64,000 nt of DNA from an uncultured Candidatus Bathyarchaeia archaeon (GTDB taxonomy: Archaea > Thermoproteota > Bathyarchaeia > RBG-16-48-13 > CAYPFQ01). Made by a program: the position numbers and the translations under genes. Positions 3 through 29,237 of the stretch are shown piece by piece. Under the pieces are notes generated by a model. That model was given only the letters and a program-made list of their open reading frames with translations, searched no databases and had not been told where the DNA came from. Each line of letters starts with the position of its first letter. The stretch's first letter is position 1. Where the stretch lies: assembly GCA_964473665.1 (NCBI GenBank), contig CAYYPV010000015.1:7793-71792 (forward strand). The letters run 5' to 3'.

Positions 3-203
3 AACAAATTAGAAGTGAAGTATCCAGGTGTGAAATTTACTATTTTTAAATCTATGGAAAAGATTAGACCAGCCGTCAAATCTGCTGTTGGAAAAATAGA
101 ACTAAAGGAGTGCAAAAATTGCGGGGAGCCTACTATAGGCGACATATGTAAACCGTGTGAAACTTTGCTTAAACTTAAGCTATTGAAAAATAGTGGGCGA
201 TGA
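3..203 (+). CDS. Zn-ribbon protein, probably a C-terminal fragment (frame is open to the window edge; possible GTG start at 15)
   Basis: CxxC...CxxC motif (KECKNCGEPTIGDICKPCE). No in-frame stop upstream to position 3. Confidence 0.3.
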   Translation, partial: NKLEVKYPGVKFTIFKSMEKIRPAVKSAVGKIELKECKNCGEPTIGDICKPCETLLKLKLLKNSGR

Positions 204-205
204 AT

Positions 206-528
206 CCCATGGTTTGGCGTCTAGTTTTCGCCTAATTCACTCGTGCACTAAGCTCATATCCGTGCCCCTTTGAGCGCAGCACGTTCGAATTTAGGTTGCG
301 ACCTCCCGGTCCTAGCCAGATTCATCCGATTGATGTGAAAACAGCTTCCATGCGGAAGCTACCTCACACACGCCAACCCCAAAGGACGGATATTCAACAC
401 TTTATGCAGAGGATTTGGATGAGCTTGGACACCTAGCCTAGGCTTCAGTTTGCCATACGACCGTTTGCAATCAGAGCTTACGCCCATCAGGGAAGGTCGA
501 GCTCCCCACCTAGATTCACCACCCAGAT
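206..528 (-). ncRNA. Candidate signal recognition particle (7S/SRP) RNA
   Basis: A GC-rich island of about 320 nt in AT-rich surroundings with no ORF. The minus strand carries a helix-8-like motif CUAGGACC-GGGA-GGUCGCAAC (GNRA tetraloop plus AGG / GCAAC internal loop), similar to archaeal CAGGCCCGGAAGGGAGCAAC. The 5' end GGGUGGUG...GGUGGGGAGC resembles archaeal SRP RNA 5' ends. Confidence 0.5.
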
Positions 529-585: not shown

Positions 586-660
586 TGGGCCGGGAGAGAT
601 TCGAACTCTCGACCACCACCTTGTAAGGGTGGTATCCTAACCAGACTAGACGACCGGCCC
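586..660 (-). tRNA. tRNA-Val (anticodon UAC)
   Basis: Cloverleaf with acceptor GGGCCGG/CCGGCCC, anticodon stem CCACC/GGUGG, loop CUUACAA, T-loop UUCGAAU, discriminator A. No intron. Confidence 0.85.
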
Positions 661-873: not shown

Positions 874-2040
874 TTAAGCGAACTGTTTAGTATTATCGGA
901 CTGATTTCTCAACCTTTTTGGCGCTCGCGATTGTTCATGCATCTCTTTTGTGACTAATGTTATTACATCTCCATCCATTACATGGTGAGTTATTCCCACT
1001 TTTTGTCCGCTGTATTTTACACTTTTTCCAGATATCTGAGCATAATGCAATGCATTTTTCATCCCTCGATGGACTTTGTTGCATACATCAAGGACTGAAG
1101 CGTTGTTCTTTAATATCATTGGTTTCTCGTAATCTGTTTCTCCGCCCTTTGGGCGCATGAAGACTCTGATGAAGCCCATTTTCTCGTAGATTTTTTCTTT
1201 TAATTGGTCTATGTTGAGGTTGGCGTCTGCCGATATGGGAATGAAACTGTAGTTTATTTTGGATTTAATTTCGTTTAAAGACTCAAGCGGTACTAAGTCA
1301 ATCTTGTTCATCACTGTTACTGTGGGAACGTACTTGCAGTTTTGTAGAAGAACATCAATAAGCTGATCGTATGATGCATCCTCGTTTATCATCACCATGG
1401 CATTGTGTATATCGAACTCTTGAAGAATCTTCTTAACTGTGTCAACCGTCATCTTCGTCATCTTAACTAAGGTGTTGACCAAGATTCCGTCTGAATCTGT
1501 TTTTTCGATGGTCAATCGGGGTTGTCGCTCATCTGGGCGAATACCGATATTTCTTACCTCTTCTTTTAGTATGGAAAGAGTTTCAGGCTGATATGCCTCA
1601 ACGATAAACAGGATCAGATCTGCGGATCGAACCACGGATAGGACTCTTTTTCCCAATCCTTTCCCACTTGATGCCCCATTGATTATGCCAGGCAGATCAA
1701 GAATCTGTATACGTGCCCCCTTGTATTCCATCATTCCAGGAACTACTGTAAGCGTTGTAAACTGATACGCCGCAACCTTAGATTTTGTGTTAGTTAACCT
1801 GTTTAACAAGGTTGATTTTCCAACATTGGGAAGTCCAATCAACACTACTGTTGCATCACCGCTTTTCTTGACTGCGTAGCCAAGCGAGCTGCCTCCACCG
1901 CGATTCCTATCCGCTTCCTCTTCCCGTTTTAGCTTTGCGATTTTAGCTTTCTGGATACCGATGTAACGTTCAGTATGCTTATTCACCTGAGTACGGTGCA
2001 GATCCTTTTGTATGGCCTCAATCTTTTCAGGAATGCCCAT
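874..2040 (-). CDS. DRG-family GTPase (Obg-like, C-terminal TGS domain)
   Basis: G1 motif GLPNVGKST, G3 motif DLPG, NKID, and a C-terminal TGS-like region. 388 aa. Confidence 0.85.
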   Translation of the reverse strand: MGIPEKIEAIQKDLHRTQVNKHTERYIGIQKAKIAKLKREEEADRNRGGGSSLGYAVKKSGDATVVLIGLPNVGKSTLLNRLTNTKSKVAAYQFTTLTVVPGMMEYKGARIQILDLPGIINGASSGKGLGKRVLSVVRSADLILFIVEAYQPETLSILKEEVRNIGIRPDERQPRLTIEKTDSDGILVNTLVKMTKMTVDTVKKILQEFDIHNAMVMINEDASYDQLIDVLLQNCKYVPTVTVMNKIDLVPLESLNEIKSKINYSFIPISADANLNIDQLKEKIYEKMGFIRVFMRPKGGETDYEKPMILKNNASVLDVCNKVHRGMKNALHYAQISGKSVKYSGQKVGITHHVMDGDVITLVTKEMHEQSRAPKRLRNQSDNTKQFA

Positions 2041-2279: not shown

Positions 2280-2393
2280 CGCCGGGGACGGGATTTGAAC
2301 CCGTGCGGGCCTAAAGGCCCACAGACTTTCTGCCCAATATCTTAGCAGGCTTACGCATTTTTTCTGCGCCTTACCAGACTGGGCTACCCCGGC
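2280..2393 (-). tRNA. Type II tRNA, probably tRNA-Ser (anticodon loop CUGCUAA gives GCU), with about 30 nt of intron sequence apparently at non-canonical position(s)
   Basis: Acceptor GCCGGGG/CCCCGGC, discriminator G, long variable arm GGGCCUUUAGGCCC, T-arm ACGGG-UUCAAAU-CCCGU. The 114-nt length requires intron(s). A duplicated GCAGAAA flanks the anticodon region. Confidence 0.6.
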
Positions 2394-2522
2394 TTTCGAC
2401 ATTGTGAAGAGCGTTCATTTTAAAAAAAGTTTACTATTGAGAGTGAGCGCGGTCTGTCTTTATCATTTTTAAACTAGTACGTATTTTGGCTATGTTTTAG
2501 ATTGTTGCAGGAAAGCTTGCAG

Positions 2523-2936
2523 TTATTTTTCTTGTTCGTGTAGTTTTTTGAAGTAATTCTTAAGGGGTTTCCAGTAGAATTCGTTCCATCCTCCTTTGAT
2601 GTCTTCAAACTGTTCTGTAGGGACTTCTGAGTGAACCATTGAAACCTCTGTGCCTCCTTTAACTTCTCTAAGAGTGAGTTCAAAACGTGACGGAGGATAA
2701 CCATCAGGCCATTCAGTCGTAACCCATTCTTGAACTATCCTTTTTCCTTTCTCTAACTTAAGGAACTTTCCAGAAATATATCCGTCCCACGCAGTGAACT
2801 TAGCGCCGACTCTTCCTTCGCCTGTAGCTTTGCTTCCTGTAAATGAGGAGTGTTTTCTCGAGTCAACAAAAGCCTCGTAAACTTCAATAGGCTTTGCCGC
2901 TAATGTGATCTTCTGCCTTATAGTCTCTGTTTTCAT
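2523..2936 (-). CDS. SRPBCC/Aha1-domain protein (START/Bet v1-like); likely start is the internal Met (MKTETIRQ) rather than the longer ORF running to 3026
   Basis: Aha1-like motifs (GAKFTAWDGYISGKFLKLEKGKRIVQEW). About 137 aa from the internal start. Confidence 0.6.
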   Translation of the reverse strand: MKTETIRQKITLAAKPIEVYEAFVDSRKHSSFTGSKATGEGRVGAKFTAWDGYISGKFLKLEKGKRIVQEWVTTEWPDGYPPSRFELTLREVKGGTEVSMVHSEVPTEQFEDIKGGWNEFYWKPLKNYFKKLHEQEK

Positions 2937-3191
2937 AGCTAACCACTTCGAAAAGTAAACTTTCAAATCGAGGAGGGTGAAAGCCCATATAAAAAGTTTC
3001 ATCAGCGTCAAATCGGTATCTAACAATTAGACTTAAGGCCTCATCGATTTGAGTGCAGGCCTGAAAGGCTGAATGAAAGAAATTTATGTTAAATCTAGAA
3101 AGCTGAGGGTAGTTCATTAAACTAATAGGCTTTATAAGTGAAGATAAAAAGAGAGGCGTTGAAGAAGTACTGTTATGTAACAAATAAAAAA

Positions 3192-3292
3192 GGGCCGGTA
3201 GCTTAGCCTGGTAGAGCGCCTGACTTGCATTCTTGCGTATAAATCCAAGACGAGAACTCAGGAGGTCTGGGGTTCGAATCCCCACCGGTCCA
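3192..3292 (+). tRNA. tRNA-Ala (UGC) with a 27-nt intron (about 3230-3256) at the canonical 37/38 position
   Basis: G3:U70 identity pair, D-stem GCUU/GAGC, anticodon stem CCUGA/UCAGG, loop CUUGCA|C, T-loop UUCGAAU, discriminator A. Followed by a T-rich tract. Confidence 0.85.
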
Positions 3293-6452: not shown

Positions 6453-6550
6453 AGCGAGGTGGGGTAGCAAGGTTTAACCCGCAGGGCTCATATGGACGAT
6501 GCCCGACCTGAGAAACCCTGAGATCGGAGGTTCAAATCCTTCCCTCGCTA
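6453..6550 (+). tRNA. Initiator tRNA-Met (CAU) with a 22-nt intron (about 6493-6514)
   Basis: A1:U72, three G:C pairs closing the anticodon stem (CAGGG/CCCUG), loop CUCAUA|A, T-loop UUCAAAU, discriminator A. Confidence 0.8.
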
Positions 6551-6816: not shown

Positions 6817-9800
6817 TTAATGTAACTTATCCTCTCTTCTCGGTTCAATTGATGTTTCTCCGCGTTGCAGCGCTTCATAGCGGTATTTAACGTCGGCAAG
6901 ATAGCTTTCAATCCCCTCGCTGTACTCTCTGTTAATTGTGATAACACTCTCCTTTGACAAATCTTTACTCAGAATACGGTCGCGCCACTTAACGTTCTGA
7001 ATATTCCTGAGACCAGTCAACTTACTGCAAAGCTTCTCAGCATCCGCACCATCCACGATAAGTCTATACGCGTAACCCTCGGAAAGCACCTTGCTCTTAA
7101 CATCCATCTGCTTATCAAGCCGAATCGCAATCTGGTTCAGTAAGAAACTGTGCTCACTCTTAACAGAAACTTCAGGAACAACTTTATCGTTTCTAACAAT
7201 AGCCTTTACGTAGCCTTTGGCGTCAATGAAGCCACATAATCCTGCGCTGAAACACTCATCACTCATGCGGTCATCTATCCTTTGAGGCTTATCTCTGAAC
7301 AGACTGTAGCTGGAATCCATAAGCACTGTTGCTACGTTGAAGTAGTTGTTGCCTCCATAATTGTTCTGTTGTTCAACGGGTTTAACTTCGAAACTGTATG
7401 ACTTGCCTTCAAGCAGTTCACGAACAACTTCTAAATGCTCAGGTCGATAGACGCGCGTTGAAACCTTAACCTTGCCTCCGTCAACCTCAACGTGGAAAGC
7501 GTAGCTGAAAAACTGCAAGTAAGCATCCTCAAAGGCGTCACCTTCACGTATGTGACCGAGTCTATCATGCAAAGGATCGTTACCCTTCTTCTCAACTTTC
7601 ATACGTAACTTTTCGTCAACAATCATTTCCTTAACCTGTTCAGGTGTAAGGTTAACAGGTTTTCCCATATCGGCAACTGAGAAATTTCCTTCTCCGATAA
7701 AAGCCTGCAACATAACATTAAACTTGGTGAAAGATTCGTCGGTCATCTTTTCAGGGCTATCAGGCAAAAAGGTTTTTCCATCTAAAACCCAGTTCTGCAT
7801 ATCTCCATATAACTTTGAAATTTCCTTATTGCTAATTTCAATAATTCTCTTCGACACGTAAACGCCGTCACCTTTAACTGTAATAATTCCATCGCCAAAC
7901 CTTAACGGGTTCTTCACCAACGCATTATACGGAATCATCCTAGAAGCATACTTAGACTCAATTGCACCCTTAACTTTCGCATTATTTGCTTTGGAAAAAT
8001 TAACTGCCTCTGCCTGAACTTGCTTCTCCTCAGTTCTATGTTTAACTTCTTTCTCAGTTGAAATCTTCTTGCGCTCTTTAGGCGTTTCAGCAGAATCATA
8101 GGAGCGTTCAAGATTTTCTTGAACCATTTTAAAGTAGTTCGGCGACTCTTTCTCAACTTTTTCAGTGTTTTCATAAGGCTTATTCCTAGACTTTAATGCG
8201 GTGAGTTCATTTTCTTTTTGCGCGTTCTCTTCAGCTAGCCACTCGTTCTGCATGCGTACAGTATCAAGCTCACTGACCTCGAAAGTTTTTTTAGTGACCA
8301 TGAAATGTTCTCGAAGCTTCACTTTATTATCATAATAAGAAGCCTGACCATCAATCTCCTGAACATCAATGCCCTCACGCCTGCATGTCTTCGCGAGGAT
8401 GAGGACTTCAAGCATAGTCATACTGCCATGCGCATCTTTGACATTCTGCATTATCATATCCGCCTTCCGTTTTACATCCGCATCCTCCTCCACGCGATGC
8501 GCCTTCACCGTCAGCCTCTCCAAAGCCGACCTATTCTTCTTCATAAAGCTGAGGCTCTCAACATTCTTCTGGTAGGAAAGCCCACGCTTCACCATGTTTA
8601 AGTCGAATCCCTGTTGACCGCAAAACTCCACGAGCTTACCACAGTCATCCAAACTCATACGGCCTTTCTCTTTTTTGACCTCGTCAAACAGTTGATTCGC
8701 CTGTCGATTAACTTCTAATTTTTCCTCATCCTCCTCTCTCTTCTCGAGGTTCATCTGAACTGCTTCACGTGCAGCTGGATTCTTCTCATAGAACTTCTCA
8801 ACAGCTACGTCAGCCCCACTCTTAACCTCAGCCTCATCAATCTCAACTTTCAAGTTAGCCGCATCCTCAGCAGCCTCCTCCCTCCTCCTATCCGACCCCG
8901 CCGCCTCAACTTTTCTTCTAAAAATTTTATCCTTAATTCCGCTCAGCCGACTTGACAGACTGACTTCCGGTTCACGGTAAATTCCCTTCCCAATTACTGG
9001 AGCGTCTCCCATGCCTGCAACATCATTAATCTCCTCAAAACCGAAACCATACACGCTGTAAATTCTGCTGTTCCTCTTATGCAGATACATCGGCCTGGGA
9101 CAGCCGTAGCCAAACTCATCAACTAAACGTTTCGATAAAGCAATGTTTCCCTCCTCCTGATTGATGAAAACGCTGATCAAGTCGCTCATGCCTAAGCGGT
9201 TAATAGGCACAGTTTCGCCTTCCTTAATGGATTTGGACTCAAGCTCATCATTCACTAGAGGAAGAACATCGGTAACATCATGCAGCTTCAAATTTACGAA
9301 CTCCGCCTCAGGCGCAGGCGTGTGACTGAACTTAGATTCGCGTAGGTGATAGCCGTACGCCCTCTGCATTAAACTGTAAACCCGACGGGATTGAAGCGGC
9401 TTATTGCAGCGTACAACATTCATATCACCATGACTGTATGAAGTGAAGTCAACTTTATGATGTTTCAGAGCCTCACTGAACTCACAGGCGCTGTCGACAT
9501 CTCTCGTCAAATAGTACAGTCGTGACTCTCCGTCTGGAAACTGGCGGCTGACGAAGATGCCTTTATTCTTAACGCAGTCAGCAATCTTTCTGAATCCTTC
9601 TCGCCAGATACCTTTTTTGTCACGGCTTCCCTCAATCGGCAGATTCTCACACTTATCGAATATTTTCTGCGTCTCCAGATCAGTAGGAGCCAAGCCGACC
9701 CTATCGCAGAACCATTTAAGCGTTTCACTATTTGCTGAACGGCTCTTCAACACTGTTTTAACAATTTTACGTTCCTCATTAGTTTTTACTAAATCCTCAG

Positions 9801-10539
9801 CATGCTTTCCAGTTCTCGTGAAGACATATTTTCCCAAATCTTTTCCGTCATAATGATAAATCCCCGGATGCTCCCACCACTGAAATCTATCCATAAAAAT
9901 TCTGTCGCCTGCAGTAGTCTCTCTCCTATTAATATGCTGACTCATTTCGTAAAGCGTGCTATGCAATTGTTCTCTAGTGGTTATCGCCCCGGCATCGTAA
10001 AGTTCACGCGGTGTCGTCTTAAACGCTAAACAGACGGCTTCAACATCGTCAACATCAAGTTTTCCTTTCCCCGCCTTTAAGTTGAAGTTCTCAACAATCT
10101 GCCGAGTAATGCTCTTGCCCTCCATCTTCTTTTCTTCGATGTAACATTCGCGGAGAGTTTTGTTCATCTTTGATTTGACTAGTCTCTCGAGACCTTCCAT
10201 TCTCTCCTTTAGAGTTAAACTTCTGGCGCCGCCGAACGGAACAACTCTGTCAAGCTGCCTGTACACGTTTAGGTATTCCTCAGTGTCCTCGCCGTATTTT
10301 TCTCCAGCCGTGAGAAATTCGCATCTAATTAGCCCATCTCCGCCTTCGCCCCAAACACCGTAATCCTTAGGCTTATCGTCCTTCGCCTCCTCCTGTGCGG
10401 TTATGTGATTTAGGTGTGGGCGTTCGTAGACTTCTCCGCGTTGCCGACGTTCCTTGATCTCTCTAAGTTCTCTCTGCCTCTCACTCTCCTTCGGTCGGCC
10501 TGCCGAGCCTTCTCCTTCGCTTAAATTCTCATCAACCAA
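6817..10539 (-). CDS. Very large (1240 aa) hypothetical protein with no recognisable catalytic motif; weak tandem LAGLIDADG-like motifs at the C-terminus
   Basis: Uninterrupted 3.7-kb ORF with a charged/coiled-coil middle region and no P-loop. C-terminal ...FHVEVDGG... and ...SAGLCGFIDAKGYV... are about 90 aa apart. Slightly higher GC than neighbouring genes. Confidence 0.7.
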   Translation of the reverse strand: MVDENLSEGEGSAGRPKESERQRELREIKERRQRGEVYERPHLNHITAQEEAKDDKPKDYGVWGEGGDGLIRCEFLTAGEKYGEDTEEYLNVYRQLDRVVPFGGARSLTLKERMEGLERLVKSKMNKTLRECYIEEKKMEGKSITRQIVENFNLKAGKGKLDVDDVEAVCLAFKTTPRELYDAGAITTREQLHSTLYEMSQHINRRETTAGDRIFMDRFQWWEHPGIYHYDGKDLGKYVFTRTGKHAEDLVKTNEERKIVKTVLKSRSANSETLKWFCDRVGLAPTDLETQKIFDKCENLPIEGSRDKKGIWREGFRKIADCVKNKGIFVSRQFPDGESRLYYLTRDVDSACEFSEALKHHKVDFTSYSHGDMNVVRCNKPLQSRRVYSLMQRAYGYHLRESKFSHTPAPEAEFVNLKLHDVTDVLPLVNDELESKSIKEGETVPINRLGMSDLISVFINQEEGNIALSKRLVDEFGYGCPRPMYLHKRNSRIYSVYGFGFEEINDVAGMGDAPVIGKGIYREPEVSLSSRLSGIKDKIFRRKVEAAGSDRRREEAAEDAANLKVEIDEAEVKSGADVAVEKFYEKNPAAREAVQMNLEKREEDEEKLEVNRQANQLFDEVKKEKGRMSLDDCGKLVEFCGQQGFDLNMVKRGLSYQKNVESLSFMKKNRSALERLTVKAHRVEEDADVKRKADMIMQNVKDAHGSMTMLEVLILAKTCRREGIDVQEIDGQASYYDNKVKLREHFMVTKKTFEVSELDTVRMQNEWLAEENAQKENELTALKSRNKPYENTEKVEKESPNYFKMVQENLERSYDSAETPKERKKISTEKEVKHRTEEKQVQAEAVNFSKANNAKVKGAIESKYASRMIPYNALVKNPLRFGDGIITVKGDGVYVSKRIIEISNKEISKLYGDMQNWVLDGKTFLPDSPEKMTDESFTKFNVMLQAFIGEGNFSVADMGKPVNLTPEQVKEMIVDEKLRMKVEKKGNDPLHDRLGHIREGDAFEDAYLQFFSYAFHVEVDGGKVKVSTRVYRPEHLEVVRELLEGKSYSFEVKPVEQQNNYGGNNYFNVATVLMDSSYSLFRDKPQRIDDRMSDECFSAGLCGFIDAKGYVKAIVRNDKVVPEVSVKSEHSFLLNQIAIRLDKQMDVKSKVLSEGYAYRLIVDGADAEKLCSKLTGLRNIQNVKWRDRILSKDLSKESVITINREYSEGIESYLADVKYRYEALQRGETSIEPRREDKLH

Positions 10540-10825: not shown

Positions 10826-11275
10826 ATGAAAATTTATTTCACACGTATGGCTAAAGGATTTGTTGCAAAAGCTTCAATTTCGGTAAATGCTCCAATTGCT
10901 AGGGTATGGGAGTCCTTAGTTAATCCGGGAATAATTAAGCAGTATATGTTTGGAACGGATGTGGTTTCGGACTGGCAGGAGGGTGGCTCAATTGTTTGGA
11001 GGGGTGAGTGGCAGGGAAAGAAGTACGAGGATAAGGGTGTAATTCTACATCTTAAGCCTATGCGTTTGATTCAATATAGTCACTTCAGTCCGCTTTCGGG
11101 GCTTCCTGACAGGCCTGAGAATTATCACTCTGTAACAATTGTGCTGTCAGAAAAAGGAGATTCCACTCTTATTTCGTTATCTCAAGACAATAATAATACT
11201 GAAGAAGCAAAGAAGCATTCTGAACAAAATTGGGCACTAATGCTTGAGAGTTTAAAGGAGTTATTAGAAAAGTGA
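10826..11275 (+). CDS. SRPBCC/Aha1-domain protein (paralogous family to 2523-2936)
   Basis: Aha1-like fold motifs (IARVWESLVNP...GGSIVWRGEWQGK). Confidence 0.55.
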   Translation: MKIYFTRMAKGFVAKASISVNAPIARVWESLVNPGIIKQYMFGTDVVSDWQEGGSIVWRGEWQGKKYEDKGVILHLKPMRLIQYSHFSPLSGLPDRPENYHSVTIVLSEKGDSTLISLSQDNNNTEEAKKHSEQNWALMLESLKELLEK

Positions 11276-11440: not shown

Positions 11441-13558
11441 ATGAAAGGTGAAAAATCTACACTCATCGTAGCGGAAAAGCCTGATGCAGCTTTAAGGATT
11501 GCGGAAGCTTTGGATGATAAAGGTAAACCGAAAAAGAAGTTGGAGAAAAAAGTTCCCTTCTTTGAAGCGGAAAGGGATGGTGAAAAAATTGTTGTTGTTC
11601 CAGCGTTGGGTCATCTTTATACAGTAACTCAGGAGATGGGTAGGCGTAATTTTTACCCGGTTTTCAATTATAAGTGGGCACCGAGGCATGTTGCTGAAAA
11701 GGGTGCAAAACAAGTTGAGAAATGGATCGGGGTCATCGCGGATTTGACTAATAACATAGATGACTTTGTAAATGCTTGTGATTATGATATTGAAGGCAGT
11801 TTAATCGGCTATATGATTTTGAAATATGCGTGTAATAATAGTGAAGGTAAATCTAAGCGCATGAAATATTCAACTTTAATGAAACGGGAACTTGAACAAG
11901 CTTATCAAAATCTTATGCCGCATTTAGATTTTTCTTTAGTTGAGGCGGGACGTGCACGGCATGAAGTTGATTGGCTTTATGGAGTAAACCTGTCTCGTGC
12001 ATTAACAATAGCTGCTGCTAATTGGAGTAAATGGTACAGCACGTTAAGCACTGGAAGGGTTCAGGGTCCTACGCTTAGATTTTTGGTCGATCGGGAAAAA
12101 GAAATCCAAAGCTATGTGCCGATTCCATACTGGAGTATAAAGACGATTGTCGAAATTAATGGATCGCCGTACGAAGTTGAGTTTGAAAAAGAGAAAATTG
12201 ACGTAAAAAGAGAGGCGGACGCGGTTGTTAAAAAATGCGCTGGGAAAAATGGCGTAATAAAGGATATTAGCCTTAAGGAATTTAGACAGATGCCCCCAAT
12301 ACCGTTCGACATTGGAGGATTGCAGGCTGAAGCATACCGGTTATTCGGATTTACGCCGAGTCGAACTTTAAGGATTGCTGAGAGACTTTATCTTGAGGCT
12401 ATGATTTCATATCCAAGAACCAGCAGCCAGAAACTTCCTCCAATAATAAATTATAATGAAATACTAACATCACTACACAAAAGAGAAGAGTATAGAAAAC
12501 TTGCTTCAGAATTGCTTGCCAAAAAAACTTTACAGCCTAACGAGGGAAAGAAGGAGGACCCAGCTCATCCAGCGGTTTACCCCACTGGCCTTATAGCAGA
12601 GCGGCCGTTAGACGAGAGTGAACATAAGTTATATGATTTGATTGTTAGGCGATTTATGGCTGTTTTTGGAGAACCTGCGTTAAAACAAACAATGAATGTT
12701 GCTATTGATGTTGCTGGTTACTTGTTTCACCTTTACGGTAGGAGAGTCCTGGAAAGCGGCTGGTTGAAATTCTATGAACAGCTTGTTAAGAGTGATGAAG
12801 TTTTATTGCCGCCTCTTGAAGTTGGCCAAAAGATTCCGTTAAAAGAAGTGGCTAGTGAGGATAAGTTTGTGAATCCGCCGCCGCGTTACAACCCAAGTAG
12901 TCTACTTAAGTTAATGGAGGAGCAGTCAATTGGAACTAAAGCTACTCGCTCTGAAATCATTGATACTTTGTATGATCGGAACTACATTCAAGATGAAAGA
13001 ATGTTGGTTACGGATCTTGGTTTTTACGTTATTGATACTCTAGAGAGGTATTGCCCAGATGTAGTTTCTGTCGAGCTTACTCGTGAGCTTGAAGAGAGGA
13101 TGGAAAAAATAGAGGTTGGAAAAGAGTTTCGTGATGTTGTGTTAGACGACGCTATTACTAGGTTAAAGCCTATTCTTGGTGAATTTAAGCTGAAGGAGAA
13201 GGAGATAGGTAAAGAGTTAAGTGAAGCTATTAGAAAGGCGCGTGCTCAAGAGAGGACTGTTGGACCCTGCCCTATATGTGGAACAGGAAATTTGATCATC
13301 TTGCGTTCGCGAAAAACTGGAAAACAGTTCATCGGTTGCTCTAATTATTTCAATAAACTGTGTAAAGCAGGATTTCCATTACCGCAAAGAGCTACTGTGA
13401 AACCTCTAAGGAGAAATTGTTCGTCATGCCAGTGGCCTATGGTTCATGTCAGAATCTTTGGGGGACGCCGACCTTGGAATTTATGTTTTAATCCTAACTG
13501 TCCATCAAGGAAGGAGCGAGCAGCTAATGCAGTGCAAAATATGCAATCGAAACAGTGA
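11441..13558 (+). CDS. topA: DNA topoisomerase I (type IA) with C-terminal zinc ribbons
   Basis: Toprim N-terminus (LIVAEKPDAA), topo IA core motifs, C-terminal CxxC zinc ribbons. 705 aa. Confidence 0.9.
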   Translation: MKGEKSTLIVAEKPDAALRIAEALDDKGKPKKKLEKKVPFFEAERDGEKIVVVPALGHLYTVTQEMGRRNFYPVFNYKWAPRHVAEKGAKQVEKWIGVIADLTNNIDDFVNACDYDIEGSLIGYMILKYACNNSEGKSKRMKYSTLMKRELEQAYQNLMPHLDFSLVEAGRARHEVDWLYGVNLSRALTIAAANWSKWYSTLSTGRVQGPTLRFLVDREKEIQSYVPIPYWSIKTIVEINGSPYEVEFEKEKIDVKREADAVVKKCAGKNGVIKDISLKEFRQMPPIPFDIGGLQAEAYRLFGFTPSRTLRIAERLYLEAMISYPRTSSQKLPPIINYNEILTSLHKREEYRKLASELLAKKTLQPNEGKKEDPAHPAVYPTGLIAERPLDESEHKLYDLIVRRFMAVFGEPALKQTMNVAIDVAGYLFHLYGRRVLESGWLKFYEQLVKSDEVLLPPLEVGQKIPLKEVASEDKFVNPPPRYNPSSLLKLMEEQSIGTKATRSEIIDTLYDRNYIQDERMLVTDLGFYVIDTLERYCPDVVSVELTRELEERMEKIEVGKEFRDVVLDDAITRLKPILGEFKLKEKEIGKELSEAIRKARAQERTVGPCPICGTGNLIILRSRKTGKQFIGCSNYFNKLCKAGFPLPQRATVKPLRRNCSSCQWPMVHVRIFGGRRPWNLCFNPNCPSRKERAANAVQNMQSKQ

Positions 13559-13748
13559 CGATAATGAATTTTGTGGATTACATAAGAAAGCGCATGAGAA
13601 TCTTATCCGTGGATATGAGAGCTGGGTAAATGCGATGGAGATTCCTTGGGAGAATTATTTGAGTGATGTTGCGAAAAACCCAAGTACTGGCCTGTGGGTA
13701 AAGGAGGTAGCGGAGTATCTCCAAAAGAAGGAGACGAGCCATAAATGA
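13527..13748 (+). CDS. Small zinc-ribbon protein (internal ATG of ORF 13446-13748)
   Basis: MQCKICNRNSDDNEFCGLH. Overlaps the topA 3' end by about 30 nt in another frame. Confidence 0.4.
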   Translation: MQCKICNRNSDDNEFCGLHKKAHENLIRGYESWVNAMEIPWENYLSDVAKNPSTGLWVKEVAEYLQKKETSHK

Positions 13749-29132: not shown

Positions 29133-29237
29133 CGCCGGGTAGGGGATTCGAACCCCTGTGTCCCGAAGGGACAACCGTTCACTCAGATCCTACTGAGAAA
29201 TTCGAGACGGTCACCTTGGCCGCTTGGCTAACCCGGC
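29133..29237 (-). tRNA. tRNA-Ser (CGA) with a 21-nt intron at 37/38
   Basis: Acceptor GCCGGGU/ACCCGGC, discriminator G, anticodon stem ACCGU/ACGGU, loop CUCGAA|A, long variable arm UCCCUUCGGGA, T-loop UUCGAAU. Confidence 0.8.

Follow-up and report, generated by a model that had tools for sequence, protein, structure and literature searches.

A tRNA-Ser(GCU) gene with two predicted short introns, at positions 29/30 and 37/38, in an uncultured Bathyarchaeia archaeon

A complete tRNA-Ser(GCU) gene on the minus strand

Which segments would have to be removed from a tRNA gene of 114 nt, whose anticodon-loop heptamer has no pairing flanks, to leave a tRNA with a regular anticodon arm? This question is raised by positions 2280–2393 of the window, i.e. 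the whole 64,000-nt stretch of DNA from an uncultured Candidatus Bathyarchaeia archaeon that was analysed here. An earlier, sequence-only reading of the locus had suggested a class II tRNA, probably Ser-GCU, in which about 30 of the 114 nt are intronic, and had proposed one or two non-canonical introns of the bulge–helix–bulge (BHB) type located outside position 37/38. That reading gave no strand; the gene lies on the minus strand, with its 5′ end at window position 2393 and its 3′ end at 2280 (letters of the minus strand from 2393 to 2280, GCCGGGGUAGCCCAGUCUGGUAAGGCGCAGAAAAAAUGCGUAAGCCUGCUAAGAUAUUGGGCAGAAAGUCUGUGGGCCUUUAGGCCCGCACGGGUUCAAAUCCCGUCCCCGGCG).

The sequence-only reading had staked the tRNA assignment on acceptance by a covariance model, and Rfam RF00005 accepts the locus (2280–2393, minus strand) over the full model (positions 1–71) with a score of 39.5 bits, above the gathering score of 29. 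The match is far beyond chance, with an E-value of 7.7e-5 for the whole 64-kb window and 3.4e-7 in a local search. In this alignment 39 bases remain unaligned, all of them inside the anticodon arm. The acceptor, D, variable and T arms and the discriminator G that had been described are all present on the minus strand: the acceptor stem is GCCGGGG/CCCCGGC, a D arm follows, the class II variable arm is GGGCC-UUUA-GGCCC with a 5-bp stem, the T arm is ACGGG-UUCAAAU-CCCGU, and the discriminator G73 stands at gene position 114. A G73 discriminator is typical of archaeal tRNA-Ser, and G is found at this position in 12/12 GCU orthologues sharing this tRNA body in our scan of archaeal and bacterial genomes. 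CCA is not encoded in the window gene, where CCG comes next, and is encoded in the two relatives described below (L019 and L021). ARAGORN in default mode reported two tRNAs in the window, and the Ser(GCU) gene was not among them.

Upstream of the gene, an A/T-rich, TATA-like box (TTTTTTTAAAA) was read from the sequence at 2418–2428 (minus strand), 25–35 nt upstream of tRNA position 1. Both L019 and L021 keep the box at equal distance, although their 150-nt flanks are only ~66% identical. The box is likely an archaeal promoter element and is consistent with a TATA element.

In-silico removal of two short introns restores the anticodon arm

As previously described for the locus, the immediate flanks of CUGCUAA (gene positions 46–52) are unpaired, a complementary pair lies beyond both flanks, represented by CAG (tRNA positions 27–29) and CUG (41–43), and GCAGAAA occurs twice, at gene positions 27–33 and 61–67. 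Between G26 and U44 there are 45 nt, of which a mature anticodon arm needs 17; the measured surplus of 28 nt agrees well with the proposed intronic share. We enumerated all one- and two-segment excisions of this 45-nt segment. In the full enumeration, no single excision yields a paired stem with U33, and all two-segment solutions in which the stem has five pairs, U33 is present and position 37 is a purine take out 13 nt, beginning at position 4 or 5 of the arm, and a second segment of 15 nt further along.

Candidate splice sites were judged by a BHB rule comprising a 4-bp helix with two flanking 3-nt bulges and, for canonical introns, the first two anticodon bases within the central helix, which is the published geometry (PMC4090602). 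An unfiltered BHB scan proved non-specific because 4-bp helices allowing G-U are common, and it was redone on only those splice-site pairs that restore a tRNA. Cleavage of archaeal tRNA introns falls after the second bulge base.

Intron 1 (13 nt, AAAAAAUGCGUAA; 2351–2363, minus strand; gene positions 31–43) lies at the non-canonical tRNA position 29/30. It fits a strict BHB in a single register (gene positions 30|31...43|44), with bulges AG|A and AA|G. In the central helix of this motif (BHB-1), G24 C25 G26 C27 (2366–2369, minus strand) as the 5′ strand forms 4/4 pairs, one of them G-U, with the 3′ strand GCGU inside the intron (2353–2356, minus strand), versus 2/4 and 1/4 pairs in the neighbouring registers; in the mature tRNA, G24 and C25 are D-stem bases. 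The outer helix of BHB-1 is 1 bp (G23-C31), and so is its inner helix (an A-U pair closing AAAA); these two flanking helices are where the locus fits the BHB type least well. Intron 2 (15 nt, AGAUAUUGGGCAGAA; 2328–2342, minus strand; gene positions 52–66) follows after a spacing of 8 nt and lies exactly at the canonical position 37/38. Its central helix, C32U33G34C35/GCAG, also has 4/4 pairs, the bulges are UA|A and AA|A, and a strict BHB is again obtained in a single register (51|52...66|67), with 1/4 pairs in the neighbouring ones. As intron 1 interrupts the anticodon stem, the outer helix of this second motif (BHB-2) has only 2 bp in the primary transcript; it extends to 7 bp after intron 1 is removed. 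The inner helix of BHB-2 is 0 bp. The 3′ bulges of the two motifs (AA|G and AA|A) are well defined, and the 5′ bulges (AG|A and UA|A) open in effect into loops. With inner helices of 0–1 bp, both motifs are in effect relaxed and bulge–helix–loop-like.

The earlier proposal of BHB introns of the kind seen in Thermoproteota and Thaumarchaeota is borne out by these two central helices, each with 4/4 pairs in one register. Its count of one or two introns resolves to two, of which only intron 1 is non-canonical; the placement of intronic sequence outside 37/38 does not hold for intron 2.

The two introns delimit three exons. Exon 1 (30 nt, tRNA positions 1–29; 2364–2393, minus strand), which aligns without gaps to intron-free orthologues, contains the acceptor 5′ strand, the D arm, G26 and C27-A28-G29. 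Exon 2 (2343–2350, minus strand) consists of the 8 nt G30 C31 C32 U33 G34 C35 U36 A37 and carries the anticodon GCU at window positions 2346–2344. Exon 3 (48 nt; 2280–2327, minus strand) takes in A38, GUCUG as the 3′ strand of the anticodon stem, both the variable and the T arm, the 3′ strand of the acceptor stem, and G73. In-silico removal of both introns gives an 86-nt tRNA with the arm CAGGC-CUGCUAA-GUCUG, including a G30-U40 wobble, and with the predicted junctions GCGCAG|GCCUGCUA|AGUCUG, i.e. G29-G30 and A37-A38. The 5-bp variable arm, G73 and the GCU loop of this product agree with the class II Ser-GCU assignment. ARAGORN calls the spliced sequence tRNA-Ser(gct) of 86 nt, which is weak evidence since it also accepted spurious excisions in control genes.

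This arrangement also accounts for the two oddities of the arm. The flanks of CUGCUAA are unpaired because intron 1 splits the 5′ strand of the anticodon stem (CAG | intron | GC) and the 3′ strand lies beyond intron 2. No duplication event is needed for GCAGAAA, since the first copy consists of G26-C27-A28-G29 followed by the three A's that open intron 1, and the second is the intron-2 strand pairing with CUGC plus the AA|A bulge; each copy is complementary to a CUG-containing strand. Separately, GCAG at positions 26–29 (window 2367–2364; gene positions 27–30) was seen to pair 4/4 with CUGC at 32–35 (window 2348–2345; gene positions 46–49). This competing GCAG/CUGC motif is BHB-like, its bulges being AAA and UAA, and cutting there would take out 19 nt with the anticodon among them; the repeat thus entails a possible mis-splicing hazard.

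With the exons held fixed, both helices were found in register in 1e-5 of intron shuffles (0.0007 for intron 1 and 0.022 for intron 2), and 3000 shuffles of the whole 45-nt segment gave 0 legal double-BHB solutions. We consider it very likely that the locus is a functional tRNA-Ser(GCU) gene with exons of 30, 8 and 48 nt and two short BHB introns at 29/30 and 37/38, the splicing of which we infer from sequence.

Orthologues lack intron 1 or share both introns

Scanning archaea and bacteria by pattern, with one genome for each species, gave 15 loci, 12 of which are GCU tRNAs of intron-free or nearly intron-free length that share the acceptor and D stems. The intron-free gene L013, from a Nitrososphaeria MAG, has an identical anticodon arm (CAGGC-CUGCUAA-GUCUG). 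The same arm is found in L005, from the Thaumarchaeota lineage UBA141, whose sole intron is 14 nt long and located at 37/38, and in L018, also from UBA141, with a 37/38 intron only. In L008, from a Bathyarchaeia MAG, the anticodon stem is CAGGC...GCCUG, and the spliced Ser(GCU) sequence is 89.5% identical to this gene. The mature arm with the G30-U40 wobble thus exists uninterrupted elsewhere, which supports an intron at 29/30 over one at 30/31, where position 30 would be A. When the sequences were aligned with MAFFT, without structural information, gaps of 13 and 15 nt coincided exactly with the predicted introns, the 13-nt gap of intron 1 being seen against L013, L005 and L008. Three loci (L001, L006 and L015) were rejected as double-intron carriers, as their 114-nt length is coincidental, their body is different and each has a single long intron at 37/38; L016 and L020 encode Ser(GGA), contain a canonical intron and match the pattern by chance.

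A lineage-specific metagenome scan added L017, L019 and L021, in all of which both introns are present. L017, at 99.9% identity, represents the window organism itself, and L019 and L021 come from relatives whose matching segments show ~80–87% DNA identity. In these two relatives only the fourth base of intron 1 differs (A-to-G or A-to-U), a loop position, and the GCGU strand is invariant; the sole change in intron 2 is the loss of one U in its unpaired part. The comparative support for the predicted intron-1 helix is conservation rather than covariation, its strands being identical in the three carriers.

Alternative readings of the locus

Shifting intron 1 by one position, to 30/31, would remove AAAAAUGCGUAAG and leave the mature stem CAGAC/GUCUG with five Watson–Crick pairs. 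This was our first hand model, and it has attractions: the arm is legal, its anticodon is GCU, its stem is all Watson–Crick, ARAGORN accepts the product as tRNA-Ser(gct), and 30/31 is a published intron position (PMC4090602). The two registers would be told apart in the mature tRNA, which would read GCGCAGGCCUGCUAA for excision at 29/30 (G at position 30) and GCGCAGACCUGCUAA for excision at 30/31. The 30/31 register forms only 2/4 central-helix pairs versus 4/4 at 29/30, and all recovered orthologues have G30 rather than A30, with CAGGC in L005, L008, L013 and L018; on these two grounds the model was discarded. The MAFFT gap, moreover, falls after CAG, i.e. not at 30/31, and we regard excision there as very unlikely. 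A more radical departure would be one long intron of about 30 nt combined with a different anticodon, as returned by ARAGORN in intron mode (-i), which reads the precursor as tRNA-Phe(GAA) with a 30-nt intron. Such an excision is without BHB support, and no single 28-nt excision combines U33 with a paired stem. The long variable arm and G73 fit tRNA-Ser and not tRNA-Phe, the orthologues with the same body are all GCU tRNAs, and ARAGORN took clearly spurious excisions in the control genes too, so that its acceptance carries little weight. A tRNA-Phe(GAA) at this locus is extremely improbable.

The locus might also be a decaying, non-functional tRNA-Ser pseudogene whose anticodon arm is broken by insertions that are never removed. 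The failure of standard detection (ARAGORN default mode), an Rfam score that is the lowest among the six window tRNAs and the minimal BHB of intron 1 would speak for such decay. The low score is explained by the two insertions, as intron-free orthologues score 59.6–64.4 bits, and the stems of the body are all intact, with exact BHB geometry in both insertions and a conserved upstream A/T box. Compared with L019 and L021, the exons are identical at 84/86 positions (97.7%) and the introns at 26/28 (92.9%), versus 57–66% for the 150-nt flanks. Exons and introns conserved so far above the flanks speak against a pseudogene and reveal that the introns themselves are constrained; we judge a pseudogene highly improbable. 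What is retained, as very likely, is a working tRNA-Ser(GCU) gene interrupted at 29/30 and 37/38.

Possible intron turnover in the other tRNA genes of the window

The same BHB rule was applied to three other tRNA genes of the window and recovered one canonical intron in each. Ala(UGC) (3192–3292, plus strand) has a 27-nt intron (about 3230–3256) with the central helix CUUG/CGAG, an initiator-like Met(CAU) (6453–6550, plus strand) has a 22-nt intron at 37/38 with the central helix CUCA/UGAG, and Ser(CGA) (29133–29237) has a 21-nt intron with the central helix CUCG/UGAG, so that 4/6 tRNA genes in the window are interrupted. The Ala(UGC) orthologues of the two relatives (L021:1441–1514 and L019:8528–8601) are syntenic and intron-free, with exons differing by 1 nt. 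Their Met(CAU) orthologues (L021:3881–3994 and L019:6047–6160, the latter on the minus strand) are without the 37/38 intron. They carry instead a 37-nt insertion inside the acceptor stem, which has a strict BHB in the 4/5 register only, with the central helix GUAG/CUAU; its excision restores AGCGGGG. Both Rfam and ARAGORN give these Met genes a wrong or truncated 5′ end. The alignment gaps of the Ala and Met genes match the predicted intron boundaries, which validates the BHB rule for this lineage.

Against these differences between close relatives in Ala and Met introns, the Ser(GCU) intron pair is kept. As a tentative and rather doubtful interpretation, the host lineage may undergo rapid tRNA-intron turnover, with the Ser(GCU) pair fixed by an obligatory splicing order or by some benefit instead of being neutral baggage. 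If true, archaeal tRNA-intron gain and loss outside hyperthermophiles could be studied in this clade as a natural system. We also observed that AA stands just before the 3′ splice site in 4/5 window introns (AA|G, AA|A, AA|C and AA|A), the exception being Ser(CGA) with UG|A; the terminal AA may reflect a sequence preference of the host endonuclease.

Genomic neighbourhood

The SRP RNA (198–521, minus strand), tRNA-Val(UAC) (586–660, minus strand) and tRNA-Ser(GCU) lie together in a small neighbourhood of RNA genes, which is also found in L019 and L021 and partly in L008, where the SRP RNA and tRNA-Val(UAC) are nearby as in the window. A gene for a DRG-type GTPase (874–2040, minus strand) lies between the Val and Ser genes in the window organism only and is absent from that place in L019 and L021. 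Its product matches, at 100% identity, a protein of an NCBI entry labelled 'MAG TPA: archaeon' and shows 62–71% identity with proteins from MAGs of Thermoproteota, Nitrososphaerota and Bathyarchaeota. Three loci reached via this GTPase in search of more remote carriers (L022–L024) have no tRNA upstream.

Several further features of the region were noted. Two paralogous AHSA1/START-like genes (PF08327) lie 8 kb apart at 2523–3026 (minus strand) and 10826–11275 (plus strand), and the window DNA of about 2495–3256, which includes the copy on the tRNA side, has no match in L019 or L021. A 1240-aa open reading frame at 6817–10539 (minus strand) has no Pfam match at E <= 0.001. On the 1.25-Mb contig of L021, the RNase P RNA adjoins the 3′ part of the 23S rRNA (11810–12108 and 12212–13739, both minus strand).

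Proposed processing of the precursor

By analogy with established archaeal tRNA processing, transcription would start from the A/T box ~30 nt upstream, and the tRNA ends would be trimmed afterwards. The archaeal splicing endonuclease EndA would cut behind the second base of each 3-nt bulge beside the 4-bp helix, and an RtcB-type ligase would join the three exons. As CCA is not encoded, it would be added post-transcriptionally to the 86-nt class II tRNA.

The two motifs cannot fully form together, since the outer helix of BHB-1 would pair C31 with G23 and that of BHB-2 would pair it with G39, and G30 lies in a bulge of BHB-1. Removal of intron 2 leaves BHB-1 unchanged. The shared C31 and the extension of the BHB-2 outer helix from 2 to 7 bp on removal of intron 1 point to sequential splicing, probably with intron 1 first. 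Closely spaced archaeal tRNA introns can require stepwise removal (PMC8450103). Formation of BHB-1 occupies G24 and C25, which are D-stem bases, as well as C27 of the anticodon stem, so that the cloverleaf must partly unfold for this motif to form.

The short inner helices (0–1 bp), together with 5′ splice sites that lie effectively in loops, bear on the endonuclease: according to our model, the genome would encode an EndA with broad specificity, either (alpha-beta)2 or epsilon2. Relaxed motifs need endonucleases of these two types (PMC4033280, PMC5829648). Among the 35/51 window ORFs that were scanned, none has an EndA or RtcB domain.

In nearest-neighbour folding, the unconstrained minimum free energy (MFE) of the precursor is -57.3 kcal/mol, in a non-tRNA fold. 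Constrained folds gave -43.9 kcal/mol with BHB-1, -37.5 kcal/mol with both central helices, -34.4 kcal/mol for the cloverleaf with free introns and -32.5 kcal/mol for the cloverleaf with BHB-2. Thermodynamic folding does not single out the BHB conformers and was set aside as a test of the BHB motifs, being uninformative either way. In the MFE fold, the D-arm segment GCCCAGUCU (2384–2372, gene positions 10–22) pairs with the intron-2 segment AGAUAUUGGGC (2342–2332, gene positions 52–62), and UGGGC of this pairing is kept in L019 and L021. The pairing is probably incidental, and it could influence the folding of the precursor.

Significance and comparison with known systems

The main value of the locus lies in annotation. 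ARAGORN misses the gene in default mode and labels it tRNA-Phe(GAA) in intron mode, so that a genome annotated in this way would seem to be without a tRNA for AGY serine codons, and tRNA counts used for MAG quality would be underestimated. Taken with the intron differences in neighbouring tRNA genes between close relatives, the locus also offers a modest body of comparative data on how tRNA introns are gained and lost.

Archaeal tRNA introns are 11 to 129 nt long, and both 29/30 and 30/31 are listed among the non-canonical intron positions (PMC4090602). Such positions, introns as short as 11 nt and genes with two or three introns are known from Crenarchaeota, especially Thermoproteales, and from Thaumarchaeota (PMC4090602, PMC4033280, PMC8450103), an example being tRNA-Pro(UGG) of Pyrobaculum islandicum, with introns at 25/26, 37/38 and 56/57 (Sugahara et al. 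2007, 2008, in PMC4090602 and PMC8450103). In the papers examined, we found no tRNA-Ser(GCU) with introns at both 29/30 and 37/38. Like the multiple-intron genes of Thermoproteales and Thaumarchaeota, the Ser(GCU) gene has more than one BHB-type intron, one canonical and one non-canonical; its introns are short (13 and 15 nt), the removal of one improves the motif of the other, and its host belongs to the Thermoproteota/TACK group. Unlike the cultured carriers, this host is uncultured, with ~41% G+C, and its relatives are known from metagenome contigs.

Each of the two positions has its own counterpart among described systems. The split tRNA-Ala(CGC/UGC) of Caldivirga maquilingensis (position list in PMC4090602) is likewise interrupted at 29/30, in the 5′ strand of the anticodon stem, whereas the present gene is not split and contains a 13-nt cis intron in a tRNA-Ser(GCU). 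Intron 2 resembles the canonical 37/38 BHB intron in that its 3′ portion pairs with C32–C35, which include the first two anticodon bases, and in that 3-nt bulges hold the splice sites, but it differs in having no inner helix, so that its 5′ site falls in an 11-nt loop and the motif is of a relaxed form. The two-intron arrangement as such is well documented in related archaea; the Ser(GCU) locus adds an uncultured Thermoproteota lineage and extends closely spaced double introns, in the combination 29/30 and 37/38, to it.
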